From NCBI GenBank assembly GCA_040776945.1, contig JAXGZN010000002.1, positions 576,001-640,000 of the forward strand: 64,000 nt of DNA, read 5' to 3'. Each line of letters opens with the position of its first letter. Position 1 is the stretch's first letter. Source of the DNA: Methanomassiliicoccaceae archaeon. Its GTDB lineage: Archaea; Thermoplasmatota; Thermoplasmata; Methanomassiliicoccales; Methanomassiliicoccaceae. Positions 35,847-50,419 of this stretch are shown here, one piece after another. The translations under genes were made by a program, and so were the position numbers. The notes under the pieces are model-generated. The model searched no databases. It was given only the letters and a program-made list of their open reading frames with translations, and was not told the origin of the DNA.

Positions 35847-36008
35847 CAGAACCCTCTAGTTCACTGATGTTCTCGGAACCGGTTCGTTAGTATAATAGAT
35901 TTGGGAGATCGTTCGTTATCCTGGGACCAGTATAGAAGAGCGCCCTGTTCTAACGATGATGAGCAGAATGGAAAAAGAGGGAAGTTGTTTACGAGCGTTG
36001 GTTCCTGC

Positions 36009-36185
36009 TTAGAACCTTCTCTCGCTGCGTGCCGGCTTGTGCTTCTGGTAGCATTCCCTGCAGTAGACCGGCCTTCCCTCAGTCGGCTTGAATGGGACCT
36101 GGGTCTCGGCTCCGCAATCGGAGCACTTCGCTGGATGCATCTCACGGGGTTCGTCGCGCCTATATCCGCCTCTTCTGTCGTTCAT
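36009..36185 (-). CDS. CxxC-x17-CxxC small zinc-binding protein
   Basis: REMHPAKCSDCG..VPFKP..GRPVYCRECY. Confidence 0.92.
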   Translation of the reverse strand: MNDRRGGYRRDEPREMHPAKCSDCGAETQVPFKPTEGRPVYCRECYQKHKPARSERRF

Positions 36186-36403
36186 ACGATTACCTGTTGC
36201 TGTTCTCCACACGCTGTTAGGACATGTGTATGCCTCTCCAATTCATAATCAGGTATAAAATAACAACTATTACGAACGCCATAATTACAAACCGAACGCT
36301 GGGTATGGCGGTCTTGGTGGTTTCCTGAAGGCATTTCTACATCCCCGCAGACCAAGCGGCATTTGATAAGATTTATATGGAAAACCGCTCATCCTTCTCT
36401 TCC

Positions 36404-36634
36404 ATGAACAAGAACGTTCTGTTGGTCCTTGTTATCATACTCACTCCGATCGTGGTCCTCGGATCCCTTGCCATGGCCGGGGCTGAGAACTTCAAGGTTC
36501 AGAAAGATAAGTTCGTGGAAGAGGAGAAGACCACTACCCATGGCGAAGGTGAATCGCTGCCATTGGCCATTGTCGAACAGTTCCGTTCGCCGTTCCTTCT
36601 CCAGGTCCCGACCTTTCTAGGGTCATCGGTCTGA
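36404..36634 (+). CDS. Small hypothetical protein with N-terminal TM/signal
   Basis: TTTATAT about 30 nt upstream; MNKN plus hydrophobic stretch. Confidence 0.45.
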   Translation: MNKNVLLVLVIILTPIVVLGSLAMAGAENFKVQKDKFVEEEKTTTHGEGESLPLAIVEQFRSPFLLQVPTFLGSSV

Positions 36635-36758
36635 ACACATCGTTCCTGACCGTCCCCGTTCCCGCGGGGCCATGTTCTTTTTTAAACGAGATCGAAATCG
36701 ATCTTCCATGTCGCTCGGCAATCGAAGGACATGAAAACAAATAGGGGCGTCGGCGAGG

Positions 36759-36983
36759 TCAGTCCTTGGTCCGGGCGGTTTTTGGCTCGGAGGTCATGAC
36801 GATCCTAACTCGCTTTCCAGGCGGGACATTGATGACGACCTCCTCCCTTATGCTCCTCTCGGACACCTCCTTCTCCTTCCTTACGCTCTTGTTCATCTTC
36901 AACATTTTCTCAGTGGGCTCATCTAGCAGCACAATGTTCAGCTGCCTTGCCTCGTCCGAAGCCGCCAATATTAGCTCTCCCAT
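36759..36983 (-). CDS. Small hypothetical protein
   Basis: AGGTGA RBS before ATG; 74 aa, charged. Confidence 0.55.
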   Translation of the reverse strand: MGELILAASDEARQLNIVLLDEPTEKMLKMNKSVRKEKEVSERSIREEVVINVPPGKRVRIVMTSEPKTARTKD

Positions 36984-37350
36984 ATTATCACCTGCCGATC
37001 GTGTACATGAATAGGGACGGACCATGCCGTTCCGGGACCACAGCATGGTCCATTATCCGCTCTATGTAAGTCTGCGACATAACTTTAAACAAACCCCTAT
37101 AGTGGACCCCTCGATAGCATTTTCTATGCATTCTATCCCGGTATAGTCATGGTCCTTGAAGTATCGAAAGGTTATAAACATTTCATGGACCTTGGACGTA
37201 TGCTTGTCTCTGGCCGGAACTGCGGTGCTATCCGAACGGTCTACGGGCTATGACGCATCCTATGCAACAGGACCATAGTCTCGTAGTTCCGGTTTGAATT
37301 CACTAGATATTATTATTAGGTTCGGGCTCAGTATTCTCATATTCGATAAT

Positions 37351-38019
37351 ATGACGGGATCGAGTCCGCCTGCTGAGCCTAAGAAAGGCTTGCCAAAAAC
37401 GCTGGTAGTCATCGCCATCGTCGCTGTGGTAGCCATAGCGGCGATAGCGGGGGCCTATATGCTGATGAACAATCCTGGACCCAACGACAAGAACGGTAAC
37501 GGGAATGGGAATAACGATAAAGGCGGTGATAATGGTAAGACACCAATATCGGCCATAGCCAATGGGGACTATATCGAGATCAAGACGACCACCGAGAACG
37601 ATACGCTCTCCATGAACTCAACAATTAGGTGGGAGGTATCTAATGTCACCGCCACGGGGTATGACATAACCATACGCATAAATTATGGCTTGTTTAACCA
37701 GACCATCACCCATCATGCCAACCTGACCGATGTCATTGGAACCGGTGCGGTAAATGATAATTATTCGATAGGTACGCTTATCGGAATTGAAACGCTTTCC
37801 ACACCAATCGGAAATAAGAAAGTGGAGCACTGGAGGATCACCGAGACAGACGATACAAATCTGACGGTGACCGACTATTACGTCGGTAAGGACACCAAAA
37901 TGGTCTATAAATTGACCATGGTGAACACTGACTCCAGCTACCCTGAGAACAATATGAACTATACGTCCGTCCTGGTCGCCACCAACATAGAGTCATTGAA
38001 AAATGGGGATAAGGCCTGA
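37351..38019 (+). CDS. Membrane-anchored surface protein, Thr/Asn-rich
   Basis: Single N-terminal TM, GN-rich linker, many N-x-S/T sequons, lower GC. Confidence 0.75.
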   Translation: MTGSSPPAEPKKGLPKTLVVIAIVAVVAIAAIAGAYMLMNNPGPNDKNGNGNGNNDKGGDNGKTPISAIANGDYIEIKTTTENDTLSMNSTIRWEVSNVTATGYDITIRINYGLFNQTITHHANLTDVIGTGAVNDNYSIGTLIGIETLSTPIGNKKVEHWRITETDDTNLTVTDYYVGKDTKMVYKLTMVNTDSSYPENNMNYTSVLVATNIESLKNGDKA

Positions 38020-38031
38020 AGTAACTACAAA

Positions 38032-38080
38032 GCGAGGCCAGACGGCCTCGCGATCATCTTATTTTTCCTTATCCTTTTCA
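38032..38080 (+). terminator. Hairpin plus T-rich terminator
   Basis: GCGAGGCC-AGAC-GGCCTCGC followed by T-tracts. Confidence 0.55.
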
Positions 38081-38647
38081 TCCATTCCACGTCGTCCGAA
38101 TCATATCCATTTCGACGAAAAGCGAGCACAAGCCTCTGTTCGTGATCTAACTGCGCTACTGCGCATCGAACAATATCATCGATGATGGTGGCTCCTCTTC
38201 ACTTGACAGTTTTCTACCATTGGTTCGTTGAAGTACCACATCAGAAACGAGGACAGCTCTGGGCGAGCAACGATCGTATCAAGATGCAGAAATGAAAGGG
38301 CTGTGTTCGAATTCCGGAGCCACACATGGTTCTCTGAAAGCTCAACCATTCATTCCATGCTGAAGCCCTCAAGTGATGACTGTTCTTCAAATATTGTGAA
38401 AAGCTTCTGATCGTCAGTCCATTCGCCCAATGATGGGGGTCGCCCTAGAGAGGCCCCTGTAAGAACCTGGCCGCTTACTGGCCGATTACAGATCGGAACC
38501 GGAGAACTATATGTCGATCCTTCTTTTTTATTTAATGGAATATTTATATATAATCAAAAAACAACATTCACAACTTACGTCTTTATTTCATTCATAAACT
38601 GGCCCGTTCAAATCCGTTTACTGAATTCGAATATTGACGGGATTAAT

Positions 38648-39142
38648 ATGGACTTGAAAGCTACGAAGATCGGAGGGTCTGGAATCATTACTGCCCTAGT
38701 AATAATTTGTTTGAGCACATTCTTGATAGCGGCCTTCACTTGGTCATCGCAGATGACCGCGTTTAAAAATCCTCAAGAAATATCACTAGGAACGCCCAGC
38801 GTTAATGAGTGGGACGCGGCTCAGTTCTTCAAAGAAAGCGTCGATTACGATATTACTATGAAAGCGAACTACAACTTCCATAGTGGAGCCAGCATAACAT
38901 ATTATATCAAAGTCATTGCCTCTGCGATACAAGGGACGATTGAACTTGGAGACTTTACTCTATCAATATCGGGAGTAACGGCGACCCTAAGTGAATCATC
39001 TGCAGGCGTATGGGTTTCGACACCTATTAGTGTTTTTAAAAATAACCCGGACGACGATATTACTATTACAATAACGCCCTCTGTTAACGCACTTGATCTT
39101 GGCATGGTTTCTTTCGAAATATCTGCACAGTCGTCTGCTTGA
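38648..39142 (+). CDS. Exported hypothetical protein, low GC
   Basis: N-terminal hydrophobic signal, Ser/Thr-rich beta-type body; TTTATATA upstream. Confidence 0.65.
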   Translation: MDLKATKIGGSGIITALVIICLSTFLIAAFTWSSQMTAFKNPQEISLGTPSVNEWDAAQFFKESVDYDITMKANYNFHSGASITYYIKVIASAIQGTIELGDFTLSISGVTATLSESSAGVWVSTPISVFKNNPDDDITITITPSVNALDLGMVSFEISAQSSA

Positions 39143-39409
39143 GCGATAAACCCCTTCCCATCATTTTTCACCCGATGTCAGAAAGTGGATCGACCGTATT
39201 GTCGGGGATAGCACTTGATGATGAGTTTCAAGAAGGTCGGCCAGCAATCGTACTCATCCGAATGATCAATAGAACGATGAAACATATCATAACGCAACTA
39301 TTGTTATTCCTTCACGACATCTTCCTCTCGACATGCAACCGGCTTCGAATTACTTCATACCTCATTTCGCCATGCCTTTCGTCCGACTTGCAACATGCCC
39401 TTAATGCGA

Positions 39410-39640
39410 AGCATAGTTTACCATGCTGACCTCGATAATAATCGATACGGCCACGATTGACTTGAGGGCAGTTATCGGTTCATTGAAAAGTAAGTACCTA
39501 GCGCAACAGCGATTATGGTGCCAAGGCCGCTCCAAATGCCATATACGACGCTGATGCGTATCCCCTCAATGATGAGGGTGAGAAATCCGAAGCAAACAAA
39601 GTAGAACACACCAACAAGATCGGTTTCCAGCATCCATTCC
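39410..39640 (-). pseudogene. SMR (EmrE/QacE-like) small multidrug transporter remnant
   Basis: Manual translation gives VVYGIWSGLGTII then, after a frameshift, LLFNEPITALK; no intact ORF; boundaries approximate. Confidence 0.7.
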
Positions 39641-39739
39641 CCGCCATCTTATGGCTTCATCATGGTTGTTCCGCCCCCTCCCCGAAGAGAAATGTCAATC
39701 CTAGATATGCCCATTCCATTACCATATCTTCTCCAGAGC

Positions 39740-40330
39740 CATAATTTGAACCCCCAAGAACCATATCAGCGATCGCATCGATTTCAATGGTGTCGCCTAT
39801 GTTTTGGGCACACACGGAACTTTGAACTGATATTCCATCAAGAACGGTGATCATGTTAGACGCTGATTCGATCTCCACATGATGGATGACCCAATGTCTT
39901 TTCTTCCATTATATGGTATTAACCTGATCTGGATAGCTTTCAAATGATGTGATGAAGCTATAACGGAGATCTTCGTTCATGTTCCATCCATCTCCGATCA
40001 ATCCGAGATGCAGTCTGGAATATCCTAGATAGCTCTTATCGAATCGATAACTGTTGATGATGAGCGCTCTGATATCCGATTCATCGTAGGTCTCGACGCG
40101 GCTATGTCATACTCCTCTCTTTGATAGGACTTCAGTGCCTGTTAACAAACAGTGTGAAAGAGCTCGTTCTTATCTCTGAAATAATGGCTAAGGGCACCCT
40201 TGGTGAGATTGGCCAAAGCAGTGAGGTCATCCCTCGATGCTCCATCCAAATCTTTCCTATATAAAGGATCAAACGCAGCGTCCACGATTTGCCCTCTGCT
40301 GCCTCCTCCCTCCTTGGTCGCGCTGAACTT
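39740..40330 (-). pseudogene. TetR-family regulator remnant
   Basis: RGQIVDAA..GAS.DDL..LANLTKGALSHYFRDKNELF HTH followed by in-frame stops; boundaries approximate. Confidence 0.65.
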
Positions 40331-47744: not shown

Positions 47745-48845
47745 CTAGGCTACCGGCGCCACCTGTTGCAGCGCGTAGCCGATGATAACTCGGATGTAGC
47801 CTCGAAGCCGCTCGTCCAGCTCAGGGTCCCCGGTATCCACCCGGAGGACCCTGGTCTCCCTCAGCTTATTGGGGGTGGCCATTACCACGATGCTCCGGAT
47901 GCCGGCCATCTCGATGACCCGGTGCGATATCTGCTGGTTCCCACGGCCGAAGATGAAGCCCTGGGCCCCGATGGGCGAGACCACGATCTTGGCCTTGGAG
48001 TATTGTGGCAACGCTCTTAAGATGGCGTCCTCGTCAACGTCCTTGGCCAGGAGCCTGCGGTCCGCCACCAGGTCCACCCCCAGCAGCGTCTTGCTGATGC
48101 CCAGCCTATCGGCGAGGGCCTTGATGGTGGTGCCCGGTCCAAGAATGTAAAGGACGCCGTTCTCCATGTTGTCGATGAAGTGCTTTGCCATCGCCTCCTT
48201 GTGCTGGTCCTCGGTGGCACCTCCGAGAGCGAGCTTGTACGGCTGCATCAGGGCCGGCTCGCTCGGCGTCAGCATATAGCCATATAGTGAACCGCTCAGC
48301 CTTCCTCGCCGCATCTCCTCTTCGTCCACGTCCATGACCTCAGAGGGGTGGGCCGGGAGGTTCTCAACTCGCGTTCTCCTGAGGAGGGCCCCCGCGTCCT
48401 GGGGCGTGTTGGCGAAGACGCCGGACTGCATCTTCACGCCCGACGGTATGCCGATGACCGGGGCCGCCTCACCGATCACGTCCATTATGTCGCGCGCCGT
48501 GCCATCGCCCCCGGTGAACATCAGAACATCCACGCCGGCCTTCAGGATGGCCGTGCATGCCTCCCTGGTATCCTTCTCCCCGGTTGGATCTCCCGGTGTG
48601 TACACGACCGTCACCCTTGGAGTATGACGCCGGAGGACATCCTCGCCCATCGTGCCTCCGGCGGTGAAGAATTCGTAGCCTTCGAGGTCCCCGGCGGCGC
48701 GAAGCGCCTCCTCGGTCCTGCGCTGGGCGATGGGGCGGGCTCCCCTCCTCATAGCCTCTTCCAGTATCTCCGCCGTATCTGTTCCCTTGAGCCCGGCCGC
48801 CCCTCCCATCCCGGCTATAGGGTTGATGATAAGTCCAACGCGCAC
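47745..48845 (-). CDS. ATP-NAD kinase family protein (COG3199-like)
   Basis: NPIAGMGG..GLKGTD, GGDGTARD, GIPSGVKM, TLLGVD, GRGNQQ. Confidence 0.9.
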   Translation of the reverse strand: MRVGLIINPIAGMGGAAGLKGTDTAEILEEAMRRGARPIAQRRTEEALRAAGDLEGYEFFTAGGTMGEDVLRRHTPRVTVVYTPGDPTGEKDTREACTAILKAGVDVLMFTGGDGTARDIMDVIGEAAPVIGIPSGVKMQSGVFANTPQDAGALLRRTRVENLPAHPSEVMDVDEEEMRRGRLSGSLYGYMLTPSEPALMQPYKLALGGATEDQHKEAMAKHFIDNMENGVLYILGPGTTIKALADRLGISKTLLGVDLVADRRLLAKDVDEDAILRALPQYSKAKIVVSPIGAQGFIFGRGNQQISHRVIEMAGIRSIVVMATPNKLRETRVLRVDTGDPELDERLRGYIRVIIGYALQQVAPVA

Positions 48846-48864: not shown

Positions 48865-48934
48865 GACGATAAAAAAGATAGGAAAAACGAGAGGGACGGG
48901 GAGGCCGGGGGGACGTACCTCCTCGCGTCCCTGC
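48865..48934 (-). terminator. Hairpin plus T-tract terminator after the FtsZ-like gene
   Basis: AGGGACG...CGTCCCT inverted repeat, then TTTTTCCTATCTTTTT on the minus strand. Confidence 0.5.
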
Positions 48935-49738
48935 TCATCTTGATAGAAGTTCAGGACCCACTGTGGTGGTGAAGGTCATGTCCACGGCCTTCGGGTCGAC
49001 GCTGGCGGTCACCATCCCCGCTACCGGCGCGGCCGCGGGCCGGGCGACTATGGCGATGTCGGGCATCTCCCTGTAGTACGCCTCGACCTCCTCACGTATA
49101 GGCGAGATGAGCTCTTGAGTGATCCTCTGGGTCATGGAATCGATCATGCTTCCGATCGACCTCTCCATGATGGCGAAGCTCTCGTTGACCGGGATGTCCC
49201 CGGCCAGGTCCAGCAGCCGATCGTTCTCCAGAACGATCGTGTTCTCGGCGACCCCGCGGAGCTTCTTGATCCCCTCCTTGGCGGCGGCCTGCCTTCCCCT
49301 CTCGTACGAGAACGGGTTGATGGCGATGGCGAAGGTGACCGCGTTGAGCCCCTTGGCGACGTCGGCCACAATGGGCGCCGCACCGGTCCCGGTGCCGCCC
49401 CCCATCCCTGCGATGACGATGACTATGTCACTGCCCTTAAGAACGCTCTCGAGGGCCGATCTGGCCTGATGCGCGCAATGTTCCCCGACCTCCGGGAATC
49501 CCCTGGCTCCCTGGCCATGGGTCACGTCCTTACCGATAAGTATCTTCTTACTGGCGTTGATCCGCTCTAACTTGGTCTCATCGGTGTTGACGGCAACAGT
49601 TTCCACCTTCTTGTTGCTCCAGTAGATGCTGTTGACCACGTTGTTCCCGGCTCCGCCGCATCCCACGACGGATATCTTCGGTTCTAGGAGGCCCTTGCTT
49701 AGAGTGGCCACTAATTGATCGCTCTTGCTGTGCATCAT
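48935..49738 (-). CDS. Truncated FtsZ-family protein (GTP-binding domain only, 267 aa)
   Basis: GCGGAGNN, AVNTD, AGMGGGTGTG signature, PFSYE, NDRL; lacks the NxDxxD T7 loop and the C-terminal domain. Confidence 0.9.
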   Translation of the reverse strand: MMHSKSDQLVATLSKGLLEPKISVVGCGGAGNNVVNSIYWSNKKVETVAVNTDETKLERINASKKILIGKDVTHGQGARGFPEVGEHCAHQARSALESVLKGSDIVIVIAGMGGGTGTGAAPIVADVAKGLNAVTFAIAINPFSYERGRQAAAKEGIKKLRGVAENTIVLENDRLLDLAGDIPVNESFAIMERSIGSMIDSMTQRITQELISPIREEVEAYYREMPDIAIVARPAAAPVAGMVTASVDPKAVDMTFTTTVGPELLSR

Positions 49739-49848
49739 CCCCGCTCCCTCTCCGTCCCCAACCAAAGGTGGGCTGGAGGGCCCCATTGCTGGGGCCCCGT
49801 GCATCCCATCCCTCTGCAGACCACATCCCTTGGATCTGATAAGCTCTT

Positions 49849-50232
49849 TCAGTCAGGTATCACCTGTACCGTGCTCTTGAGGGCCTCCATTTTCTGCTTC
49901 TTCGTTGCCTCAAGGAATTCCTCGGTGTCGATGAACTTCTTCCTGATGCACTCCACCACCGCTTCCTCGGGGGAATTGTATATCCCTGCCCGGACCGAGG
50001 TCATGATGGTCTCATGCGCGAACCGGGGGACCTCGATAGTCATCACGTTGCTCTTCTTGCCGAGCTTCGTGGCTTCGGTTGCCCTGTCCCCCTCGAACTG
50101 CTCGATGAACGAACGAATGGCCACCCTGGCGAAGTTGGAGCGGTTCGAGTACTCAGGATGCTTCTTGATGAAACCATCAAGAAGGATCAGGTCCTCGGGT
50201 TCCAACCGCAGTGAGATCCTTTCTCCGTCCAC
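49849..50232 (-). CDS. Tandem ribbon-helix-helix transcription regulator (CdrS/CopG-like)
   Basis: ERISLRL...YSNRSNFARVAIRSF and a second unit VMTIEVP...YNSPEEAVVECIR; GAGGTGA RBS. Confidence 0.85.
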   Translation of the reverse strand: MDGERISLRLEPEDLILLDGFIKKHPEYSNRSNFARVAIRSFIEQFEGDRATEATKLGKKSNVMTIEVPRFAHETIMTSVRAGIYNSPEEAVVECIRKKFIDTEEFLEATKKQKMEALKSTVQVIPD

Positions 50233-50279
50233 GTTAGCTCACCTCTGTATTAGAGACGATTGGGAAATGTCCTATTTAG

Positions 50280-50419
50280 TATATAAAAATATGTCACTCG
50301 TCATATATTGTCATACTCAATTTTGATATTTTGATCCTGATCTACCCAGTCATCGATTTGAGAATTTATAATAATTTTTGGTAAAAGCCACAGTTCTATT
50401 CAATATGACAATGTACGAC
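50280..50419. promoter_or_regulatory. Promoter of the RHH/ftsZ-like operon with two inverted copies of a 16-bp operator-like motif
   Basis: Minus-strand TTTATATA at 50280-50287; TATGACAATATATGAC (minus, 50300-50315) and TATGACAATGTACGAC (plus, 50404-50419). Confidence 0.6.

Follow-up and report, generated by a model that had tools for sequence, protein, structure and literature searches.

A natural half-FtsZ conserved across the Methanomassiliicoccales and encoded beside a putative ribbon-helix-helix gene

FtsZ and tubulin consist of two fused domains, and head-to-tail contact builds the GTPase site. A stretch of 64,000 nucleotides from a Methanomassiliicoccaceae archaeon (GCA_040776945.1, contig JAXGZN010000002.1, positions 576,001 to 640,000; called the window here, plain positions being counted from its first nucleotide) encodes at 48935-49738, on the minus strand, a half-FtsZ protein for which the name Zt is used. 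The truncation of Zt is real, ancient and under selection, and the gene is intact and not a pseudogene. Judging from its anatomy, Zt keeps all nucleotide-binding loops and is predicted to bind GTP, and of the longitudinal FtsZ interface it appears to retain the nucleotide (top) face alone. We propose, at a probability of roughly 0.4, that Zt does not polymerise but serves as a one-faced, GTP-binding subunit docking on, or capping, the T7 face of full-length FtsZ. As a natural, order-wide, stand-alone nucleotide-binding half, Zt is a ready-made experiment on the capacities of that half.

Identification and anatomy of Zt

The minus strand of the window carries two co-oriented open reading frames (ORFs), at 49849-50232 (127 amino acids, aa) and at 48935-49804 (289 aa from its first ATG). 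Homologues of the second begin at MM.., corresponding to M23 of the 289-aa ORF, and 118 of the 120 best database homologues are shorter than 300 aa, most of them having 260-279 aa. The coding sequence (CDS) of Zt was therefore placed at 48935-49738, giving a protein of 267 aa. Confidence of the structural model is given below as the predicted local distance difference test (pLDDT).

48935..49738, minus strand: Zt CDS, 267 aa plus stop; start at the second in-frame ATG cluster (M23), from homologue starts; Tubulin domain only
49202..49678, minus strand: Tubulin/FtsZ GTPase domain, residues 21-179, loops T1-T6 (PF00091, invariant residues, model)
49382-49402, minus strand: GGGTGTG signature, within the GTPase domain
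49067..49189, minus strand: helix H7, extended as one long helix, residues 184-224 (DSSP on the model, pLDDT 70-87; alignment to canonical FtsZ)
49085-49114, minus strand: ELISPIREEV, residues 209-218, at the T7 loop position (alignment to canonical FtsZ)
48938..49066, minus strand: C-terminal tail, residues 225-267, predicted to be disordered, with two short conserved motifs (alignment; low pLDDT)

A first-pass annotation of this locus had described a 267-aa protein following FtsZ from the T1 loop through H7 with an intact GGGTGTG signature, and this description agreed with the ORF and homologue starts, with the Pfam and TIGR00065 searches and with alignment to the FtsZ of M. jannaschii (1FSZ). 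When the protein was compared with the Tubulin and FtsZ_C models, as the annotation had suggested, only Tubulin was recovered: PF00091 was the sole Pfam domain (E 1.5e-37), and FtsZ_C (PF12327) gave no Pfam match to Zt. The ftsZ model TIGR00065 reached 205.2 bits, below its cut-off of 295.2, and only model positions 15-210 of 353 were covered. Residues 19-209 of Zt aligned with residues 37-229 of the 1FSZ chain, the alignment ending at the end of H7. All 49 PDB sequences matching Zt at E<=1e-20 bear the name FtsZ, and no match to Tubulin_2 (PF13809) was obtained at E<=0.01.

The segment GMGGGTGTG is intact at residues 111-119. At the T7 position canonical paralogues carry P-G-L-V-N-L-D-x-x-D (..PGLVNLDFxD.. 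in the same genome), whereas Zt has ELISPIREEV, and the alignment to these paralogues confirmed the replacement that the annotation had named. Past residue 190 the pattern N.D..[DE] occurred in one of 71 Zt family members, as a chance NIDEAE. A tblastn search of the 64-kb window with the C-terminal domains of the genome's five full-length FtsZs yielded nothing (best E 0.46), indicating that there is no frameshifted remainder of Zt. The annotation was right in that a short tail has replaced the C-terminal domain; its description is refined in that the 58-residue tail is more than Ala/Pro filler and carries family-conserved motifs.

An alignment of the 71 family members, reaching down to 35% identity, showed invariant columns at G26, G28, G29, A30, G31, N33, N51, G111, G113, G117, P142, E146 and N172. 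We take G26-N33 to belong to loop T1, N51 to T2, G111, G113 and G117 to T4, P142 and E146 to T5, and N172 to T6. An AlphaFold2 model of Zt had a mean pLDDT of 81, with values >95 in the N-domain, and Foldseek superposed ~190-200 residues on FtsZ N-domains with a root mean square deviation (rmsd) of 1.2-1.8 A. In the model, H7 forms a single helix of 41 residues (184-224) whose C-domain-facing side is uncovered; beyond residue 224 confidence is low, and one short strand was predicted at 241-244. Tail motifs were scored in 63 rows outside one family, f7, which is equated with the Methanomethylophilaceae because a named Candidatus Methanomethylophilaceae archaeon locus lies inside its Zt clade. 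An internal motif (E/Q/T/D)-h-h-x-(A/S/T)-x, typically (E/Q)-h-h-x-A-S, was found around residues 240-246 in 40 of these rows, and a C-terminal motif h-h-x-(R/Q), P-x-L-L-S/T-R, in 29.

Since every nucleotide-binding loop is retained, Zt would be expected to bind GTP. Since the T7 loop and the C-terminal subdomain are lost, it is predicted to be unable to give catalytic residues to a neighbour or to form a head-to-tail filament by itself. The single polymerisation face that the annotation had deduced is consistent with this anatomy.

Conservation, selection and expression

A genome search revealed the short form in 120 of 121 genomes of the order Methanomassiliicoccales. Listed rows had open frames of 224-407 aa, and the called genes that were extracted had 232-310 aa. 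FtsZ_C was absent from 119 of the 120 best database homologues and present in one; several Zt homologues bear the NCBI names Methanomassiliicoccus sp., Methanomassiliicoccales or Thermoplasmata. The ratio of nonsynonymous to synonymous substitution rates (dN/dS) of Zt against orthologues of the genus was 0.08-0.20 overall, 0.05-0.14 for residues 1-209 and 0.17-0.52 for the tail, values which are rough, since dS was 0.8-1.4 and thus near saturation. Shared truncation among orthologues and dN/dS below 1 had been named as checks in the annotation, and both were observed.

Contigs without differences from the window bridged the junction between Zt and the upstream ribbon-helix-helix (RHH) gene in four of four RNA libraries (metatranscriptomes) from four studies. 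These contigs are a hint of expression of both genes, DNA being able to occur in such libraries, and are no proof of a single transcript. Contig cover ended at ~48919 and ~50237 in the four runs, which says nothing about transcript ends or neighbouring genes. The zero-difference contigs over 48919-50237 came from libraries labelled activated sludge, bioreactor and anaerobic digester (four studies), and the same strain seems to be widespread in such systems.

A recent pseudogene, a frameshift or a misassembly of a full-length ftsZ is refuted by the conservation data and retains a negligible probability. Only the short length speaks for such an origin, whereas the architecture is the same in all but one of the 121 genomes of the order searched, dN/dS is well below 1, no remnant of FtsZ_C occurs anywhere in the window, and the sequence is identical in contigs of four independent RNA libraries.

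The range of the short form was followed in a phylum sample that included 134 genomes outside the order, with 150 matches listed and 173 further ones. Among the 150 matches listed, those from outside the order had full-length frames (at least 338 aa) except for three that were much shorter, two of which lay at contig starts. The short form was thus not seen outside the Methanomassiliicoccales among the matches listed, which is not the same as being absent. A Protein Atlas match to Zt of 0.84-0.85, below the 0.9 mark, pointed to short Tubulin-only clusters in Thermoplasmatota and is to be taken as a lead only.

The RHH partner gene and the transcription unit

In 39 of 40 loci an RHH-like ORF of 111-170 aa immediately precedes Zt in the same orientation; the ftsZ ORF of the fortieth locus is over-extended. 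The statement that an RHH-like gene precedes the half-FtsZ therefore stands, and the relation of this gene to CdrS-type genes (see below) agrees with it. The elements around Zt are listed here.

49849..50232, minus strand: CDS of a putative 127-aa single-chain double RHH protein, distant relative of CdrS, GTG start (weak RHH_8 and CdrS matches; conservation; model)
49739..49848, minus strand: spacer between the RHH gene and Zt, 110 bp, GC-rich, without an AT-rich box; purine-rich GGAGAGGGAG directly before the ATG (read from the sequence)
50280..50289, minus strand: AT-rich TTTTTATATA, candidate archaeal TATA box, 47 nt upstream of the RHH start codon (inferred from the sequence only)
48871..48931, minus strand: hairpin GGGACG..CGTCCC (6 bp) with T5 and T6 runs behind it, which probably terminates the two-gene unit (read from the sequence)
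47745-48845: NAD-kinase-like gene, downstream of the Zt hairpin (Pfam search)

The 6-bp hairpin, the NAD-kinase-like gene and the negative tblastn search bear out the annotation's description of a terminator-like hairpin and an unrelated gene downstream of Zt, with no frameshifted remainder. We infer that the RHH gene and Zt form one two-gene unit, of which the RHH protein would be the CdrS-like transcription factor. The RHH protein matched RHH_8 with E 8.4e-4, below the cut-off, and reached 17.8 bits with the CdrS model NF058555, far below the cut-off of 100. Its AlphaFold2 model (predicted template modelling score, pTM, 0.32) showed two (extended)-helix-helix repeats and a C-terminal helix. 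Foldseek returned nothing for this model at E<=0.001; weak local rows were to the RHH domains of NikR, ParD and MazE (rmsd 1.3-1.8 A over 42-46 columns). The C-terminal ends of both Zt and the RHH protein are conserved.

Elsewhere in the window, positions 36001-40000 have a GC content of 0.44-0.50, compared with about 0.59-0.63 in the remainder, and may represent a foreign or special region.

Origin of the Zt module

Seven genes of the genome matched PF00091, namely five full-length FtsZs with FtsZ_C, Zt and one divergent FtsZ-like gene; FtsZ_C itself matched five loci, all other than Zt. A second RHH-ftsZ module was found outside the window, at G000:C1:660900-662415.

G000:C1:660900-661943: FtsZ2-type gene, RHH-linked, full length, 347 aa, T7 intact (NLDFAD)
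G000:C1:661984-662415: tandem RHH gene just upstream of the FtsZ2-type gene

Because this separate full-length RHH-FtsZ2-type pair exists in the same genome, Zt belongs to an additional, paralogous module rather than to the cdrS-ftsZ2 slot, to which the annotation had assigned it. At 20 further loci of the order with an FtsZ2-type gene, an RHH gene lay upstream in 18 and the NLDF/YAD pattern was present in 18.

A duplicated RHH-ftsZ2-type module is the probable source of Zt, as suggested by the shared RHH synteny, the RHH profile match and pairwise scores. Searched against the whole genome, the RHH profile found its best match other than itself in the RHH protein upstream of the FtsZ2-type gene (E 2.8e-10), and direct comparison of the two module RHH proteins gave E 9e-6. 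The profile also matched the CdrS proteins of Haloferax sp. Q22 (E 4.8e-9) and Methanoculleus (E 5.7e-7) at ftsZ2 loci. Of the 150 matches listed for Zt, the FtsZ2-type gene was the only paralogue from the same genome (E 2.1e-46). Among the matches listed, the best full-length ones were RHH-linked FtsZ2-type genes of other classes (E 1e-55 to 1e-57); the FtsZ without an RHH gene of some of those same genomes gave E about 1e-41 to 1e-46.

Trees were built without a CetZ reference, and their named reference loci came from a genome contig scan covering at least 600 stretches, which is not a census. The Zt clade was monophyletic on a long stem (SH-like approximate likelihood ratio test, 95 in one tree and 100 in two others) and lay outside the FtsZ1 clade (support 92-100). 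The latter is a clade in which four full-length genes of the genome clustered with FtsZs lacking an RHH gene from named haloarchaea, Methanoregula and Methanobrevibacter (support 92-100), and which was taken as FtsZ1. The fifth gene (G000:C1:660900-661943) grouped with other RHH-linked Thermoplasmata genes, and a neighbouring clade held the cdrS-ftsZ2 loci of Haloferax sp. Q22 and Methanoculleus and RHH-linked genes of other Thermoplasmatota classes. The stem of Zt attached at an unresolved node between the FtsZ1 and FtsZ2-type groups, so that the FtsZ2 origin of Zt rests on synteny and pairwise scores. The comparison with FtsZ1 and FtsZ2 that the annotation had proposed thus recovered Zt as one clade but did not fix its point of attachment, a grouping with FtsZ1 not being rejected (approximately unbiased test, p-AU 0.293).

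Several observations concern the paralogues and the RHH genes themselves. The FtsZ1-type paralogues, at G000:C1:664514-666941, C1:101185-102285 and C2:933263-934531, number four in a genome of 2.17 Mb, an unusual multiplicity; by eye, two of them stand in tandem directly before nusG-, L11- and L1-like genes. ORFs of tandem-RHH length were also seen upstream of FtsZ2-type genes outside the order, at L106 (127 aa; G205, from another order of the class) and L114 (106 aa; G245), indicating that the internal RHH duplication may predate the duplication of the module. Most RHH ORFs from other classes of the phylum have 76-104 aa, and the shorter ones carry a coiled-coil-like tail (by eye). The divergent FtsZ-like gene (G000:C2:137404-138351) has GGETGS for GGGTGT and a diverged T7 region. 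It had a match of <1e-40, well above the cross-match of canonical FtsZ, in 71 of 80 genomes of the order outside the Methanomethylophilaceae, and several of its orthologue rows contain one in-frame TAG, TAA or TGA.

Proposed mode of action

According to PMC8936486, FtsZ filaments grow at the end that exposes T7, where an incoming monomer attaches by its GTP-bound top face, and FtsZ mutants of the bottom interface block division and are toxic. We suggest that the nucleotide (top) face of Zt would dock on the exposed T7 (bottom) face of the full-length FtsZ paralogues of its genome, among which the five FtsZs with FtsZ_C are T7-bearing candidate partners; the RHH-linked FtsZ2-type protein would be the likeliest. 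Docking would end filaments, or pair them off, at the growing end, or give a dead-end heterodimer. The T7 loop of the partner could hydrolyse the GTP of Zt, which would make the cap transient, and the conserved tail motifs may tether Zt to another division component. A prediction of the complex of Zt, the FtsZ2-type paralogue of its genome and GTP scored 0.00 and was run without controls, which speaks neither for nor against binding. An ability of Zt to cap full-length FtsZ or to pair with it would make this protein the first negative or length regulator in archaea to derive from FtsZ, and a natural counterpart of the toxic bottom-face mutants that define the polarity of the FtsZ filament.

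Zt in the Methanomethylophilaceae and alternative explanations

Several observations weigh against a capping role, beginning with the Methanomethylophilaceae (example genomes G034, G030, G061, G079 and G101; loci L043-L052 and L127-L134). FtsZ_C exceeded its cut-off in only one of 61 genomes of this family, yet Zt and its RHH partner are retained, a finding which also challenges the annotation's idea of a purely dedicated regulator of canonical FtsZ. Zt was the sole FtsZ match at E<=1e-20 in 37 of 40 genomes, with two matches in two genomes and none in one, and the residues of its GTP pocket are invariant there too. As the family keeps Zt and the pocket without a T7-bearing FtsZ, Zt would there work without a T7-bearing partner. 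Any relaxation in the family counts as a single evolutionary event, because the family forms one clade. Further points are that a grouping of Zt with FtsZ1 is not rejected, costing 0.47 log-likelihood units (p-AU 0.293), and that the RHH fold is weakly supported, with the low pTM and the lack of a Foldseek match given above.

The Zt proteins of the Methanomethylophilaceae also differ from the others. Among 49 core positions conserved and identical in the remaining Zt proteins and in canonical FtsZ, 11 are lost in this family. P82 and E86 are among them; they belong to GA.GFPEVGE, the counterpart of canonical GLGAGg.P.vgE in the alignment. This segment is presumably the T3 loop. Their tails are shorter, with proteins of 232-244 aa compared with mostly 260-274 aa. 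As far as sequences go, the losses on the top face and the shorter tails fit a relaxation where T7-bearing partners are lost, and in this respect agree with the docking proposal. SepF was detected in 16 of 40 genomes of the family and in 78 of 81 elsewhere in the order. A search for Snf7 (PF03357) matched none of 81 genomes; its control matched only Sulfolobus, below the cut-off, and the search is too insensitive to show absence of ESCRT-III.

In five single-contig genomes of the family, PF00091 recovered Zt every time and, in three of them, a second gene with a weak match (E<=0.01). This second FtsZ-like gene encodes ~280 aa without N-x-D-x-x-D, is preceded by genes for stalk ribosomal proteins (by eye) and by an RHH-like ORF, and may have descended from the FtsZ2-type module by degeneration. 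It was located at the following positions.

L066:1096-1944(-): second FtsZ-like gene
L132:1267-2202(+): second FtsZ-like gene
L133:1324-2181(+): second FtsZ-like gene
L134:1363-2202(+): second FtsZ-like gene

Somewhat unlikely in our estimation, the first alternative holds that Zt is an FtsZ-independent GTP switch or adaptor, acting as monomer or dimer, of which H7 and the tail would bind a non-FtsZ partner such as the membrane anchor SepF or another division or envelope factor. It is favoured by the retention of Zt and the RHH gene where canonical FtsZ is missing, by Zt being the only PF00091 match (E<=0.01) in two of the five complete genomes, by the family-wide invariance of the nucleotide pocket, by tail motifs that are conserved and under purifying selection, and by the persistence of SepF in the 16 genomes despite the loss of canonical FtsZ. 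However, in the Methanomethylophilaceae the tail motifs have for the most part disappeared or changed, the presence of SepF among their genera tracks no obvious tail motif (by eye), and the top-face segment is canonical exactly where T7-bearing FtsZs occur. Put more broadly, and with slightly more doubt, Zt could be a new tubulin-fold type working without a T7-bearing partner, either as a switch or by H7/tail assembly, and could form together with the double-RHH protein the retained division core of the Methanomethylophilaceae. Should Zt work alone, the question arises of how this family, which includes cultivable gut methanogens, divides. Assembly of the half-FtsZ into dimers or filaments through a non-canonical interface, namely the exposed H7 face or strand addition by the tail, would make Zt a cytoskeletal element, which we consider improbable. 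The 41-residue H7 with its uncovered side and the short strand predicted at 241-244 would allow for it, most Methanomethylophilaceae genomes have no strong FtsZ relative besides Zt, and all characterised FtsZ/tubulin proteins form filaments according to the reviewers and authors of PMC2875224; nothing in Zt, however, replaces T7 or the bottom face, and the model is of low confidence past residue 224. Slimmer still are the chances of a segregation-like pair, in which the RHH protein would be a DNA-bound adaptor, as are the RHH centromere binders of plasmids, and would engage the tail of Zt by analogy with TubR-TubZ. The tight coupling of the genes in 39 of 40 loci, Methanomethylophilaceae included, and the conserved C-terminal ends of both proteins are compatible with such a pair, but the pairing of an RHH gene with ftsZ goes back to the cdrS-ftsZ2 arrangement, PMC7439475 describes CdrS as a transcription factor, and the domain on which TubZ-like filaments depend is missing from Zt. 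Neither a repeat array nor a centromere-like site was noticed, no search for one having been made.

Two further ideas were set aside. The divergent gene G000:C2:137404-138351 was considered as the missing bottom half of Zt in a heterodimer; its orthologues are common outside the Methanomethylophilaceae, the second FtsZ-like gene of this family lies in a different context and went undetected in two of the five complete genomes, and the idea was left as speculation. The C-terminus of Zt was considered as a SepF-binding peptide, since its h-h-x-R/K end resembles the ..DFIK/..DFVR of the full-length paralogues; in the Methanomethylophilaceae the presence of SepF tracks no visible tail motif. Whether Zt caps FtsZ, as we favour, or acts alone, a call of 'FtsZ present' in a comparative table can conceal a half-protein.

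Comparison with known systems

In the available portions of the literature, including PMC8178401, PMC9871819 and PMC11188069, no archaeal FtsZ without T7 and C-domain was found; supplementary tables may list such genes as FtsZ, and one of the three studies dropped sequences of <60% alignment coverage. The closest arrangement is the cdrS-ftsZ2 unit of Euryarchaeota, in which the RHH regulator CdrS is reported to be co-transcribed with FtsZ2 (PMC7439475). As at the Zt locus, a small RHH gene stands directly upstream of, and co-oriented with, a gene of the FtsZ family. FtsZ2 is, however, of full length with T7 and FtsZ_C, both of which Zt lacks, and CdrS is described as a single RHH of ~60 aa, whereas the partner of Zt is a putative double RHH of 127 aa.

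Zt may also be compared with laboratory constructs. The isolated N-terminal domain of FtsZ was reportedly studied in vitro by Oliva et al. in 2004. Like this domain and the bottom-interface mutants mentioned above, Zt would have a working top face and no working bottom face; unlike them, it is natural, occurs order-wide with its own regulator, and has an extended H7 and tail motifs.

The outcome proposed for Zt, capping of ends or a limit on subunit addition, is that of the FtsZ cappers and sequesterers MciZ (PMC8936486), MipZ (PMC9897490) and SulA. Those proteins have unrelated folds. MciZ attaches to the bottom face; Zt would instead engage FtsZ in the manner of an FtsZ-like subunit, by way of the usual longitudinal interface. 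The truncated FtsZs of Hyphomicrobiales (Agrobacterium FtsZ1 and FtsZ3) resemble Zt in being extra, shortened and long-kept paralogues, and have been proposed as tuners of division; continuous expression of Agrobacterium FtsZ1 is reported to inhibit division (PMC13732431; bioRxiv 10.1101/412759). They are bacterial, and two of the three homologues are described as having GTPase activity and co-polymerising, unlike what is predicted for Zt, indicating that those homologues keep the T7/C-domain machinery that Zt lacks.

FtsZl1 (Makarova and Koonin 2010, PMC2875224) is, like Zt, a member of the FtsZ superfamily without a recognisable C-terminal domain, for which filament formation is described as doubtful. 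It is depicted there as highly diverged (Tubulin_2), lacking T6-H7 and having a long C-terminus with coiled-coil and helical parts. Zt, by contrast, has no Tubulin_2 match, is a close relative of FtsZ (205 bits with TIGR00065) and keeps T6-H7 intact.

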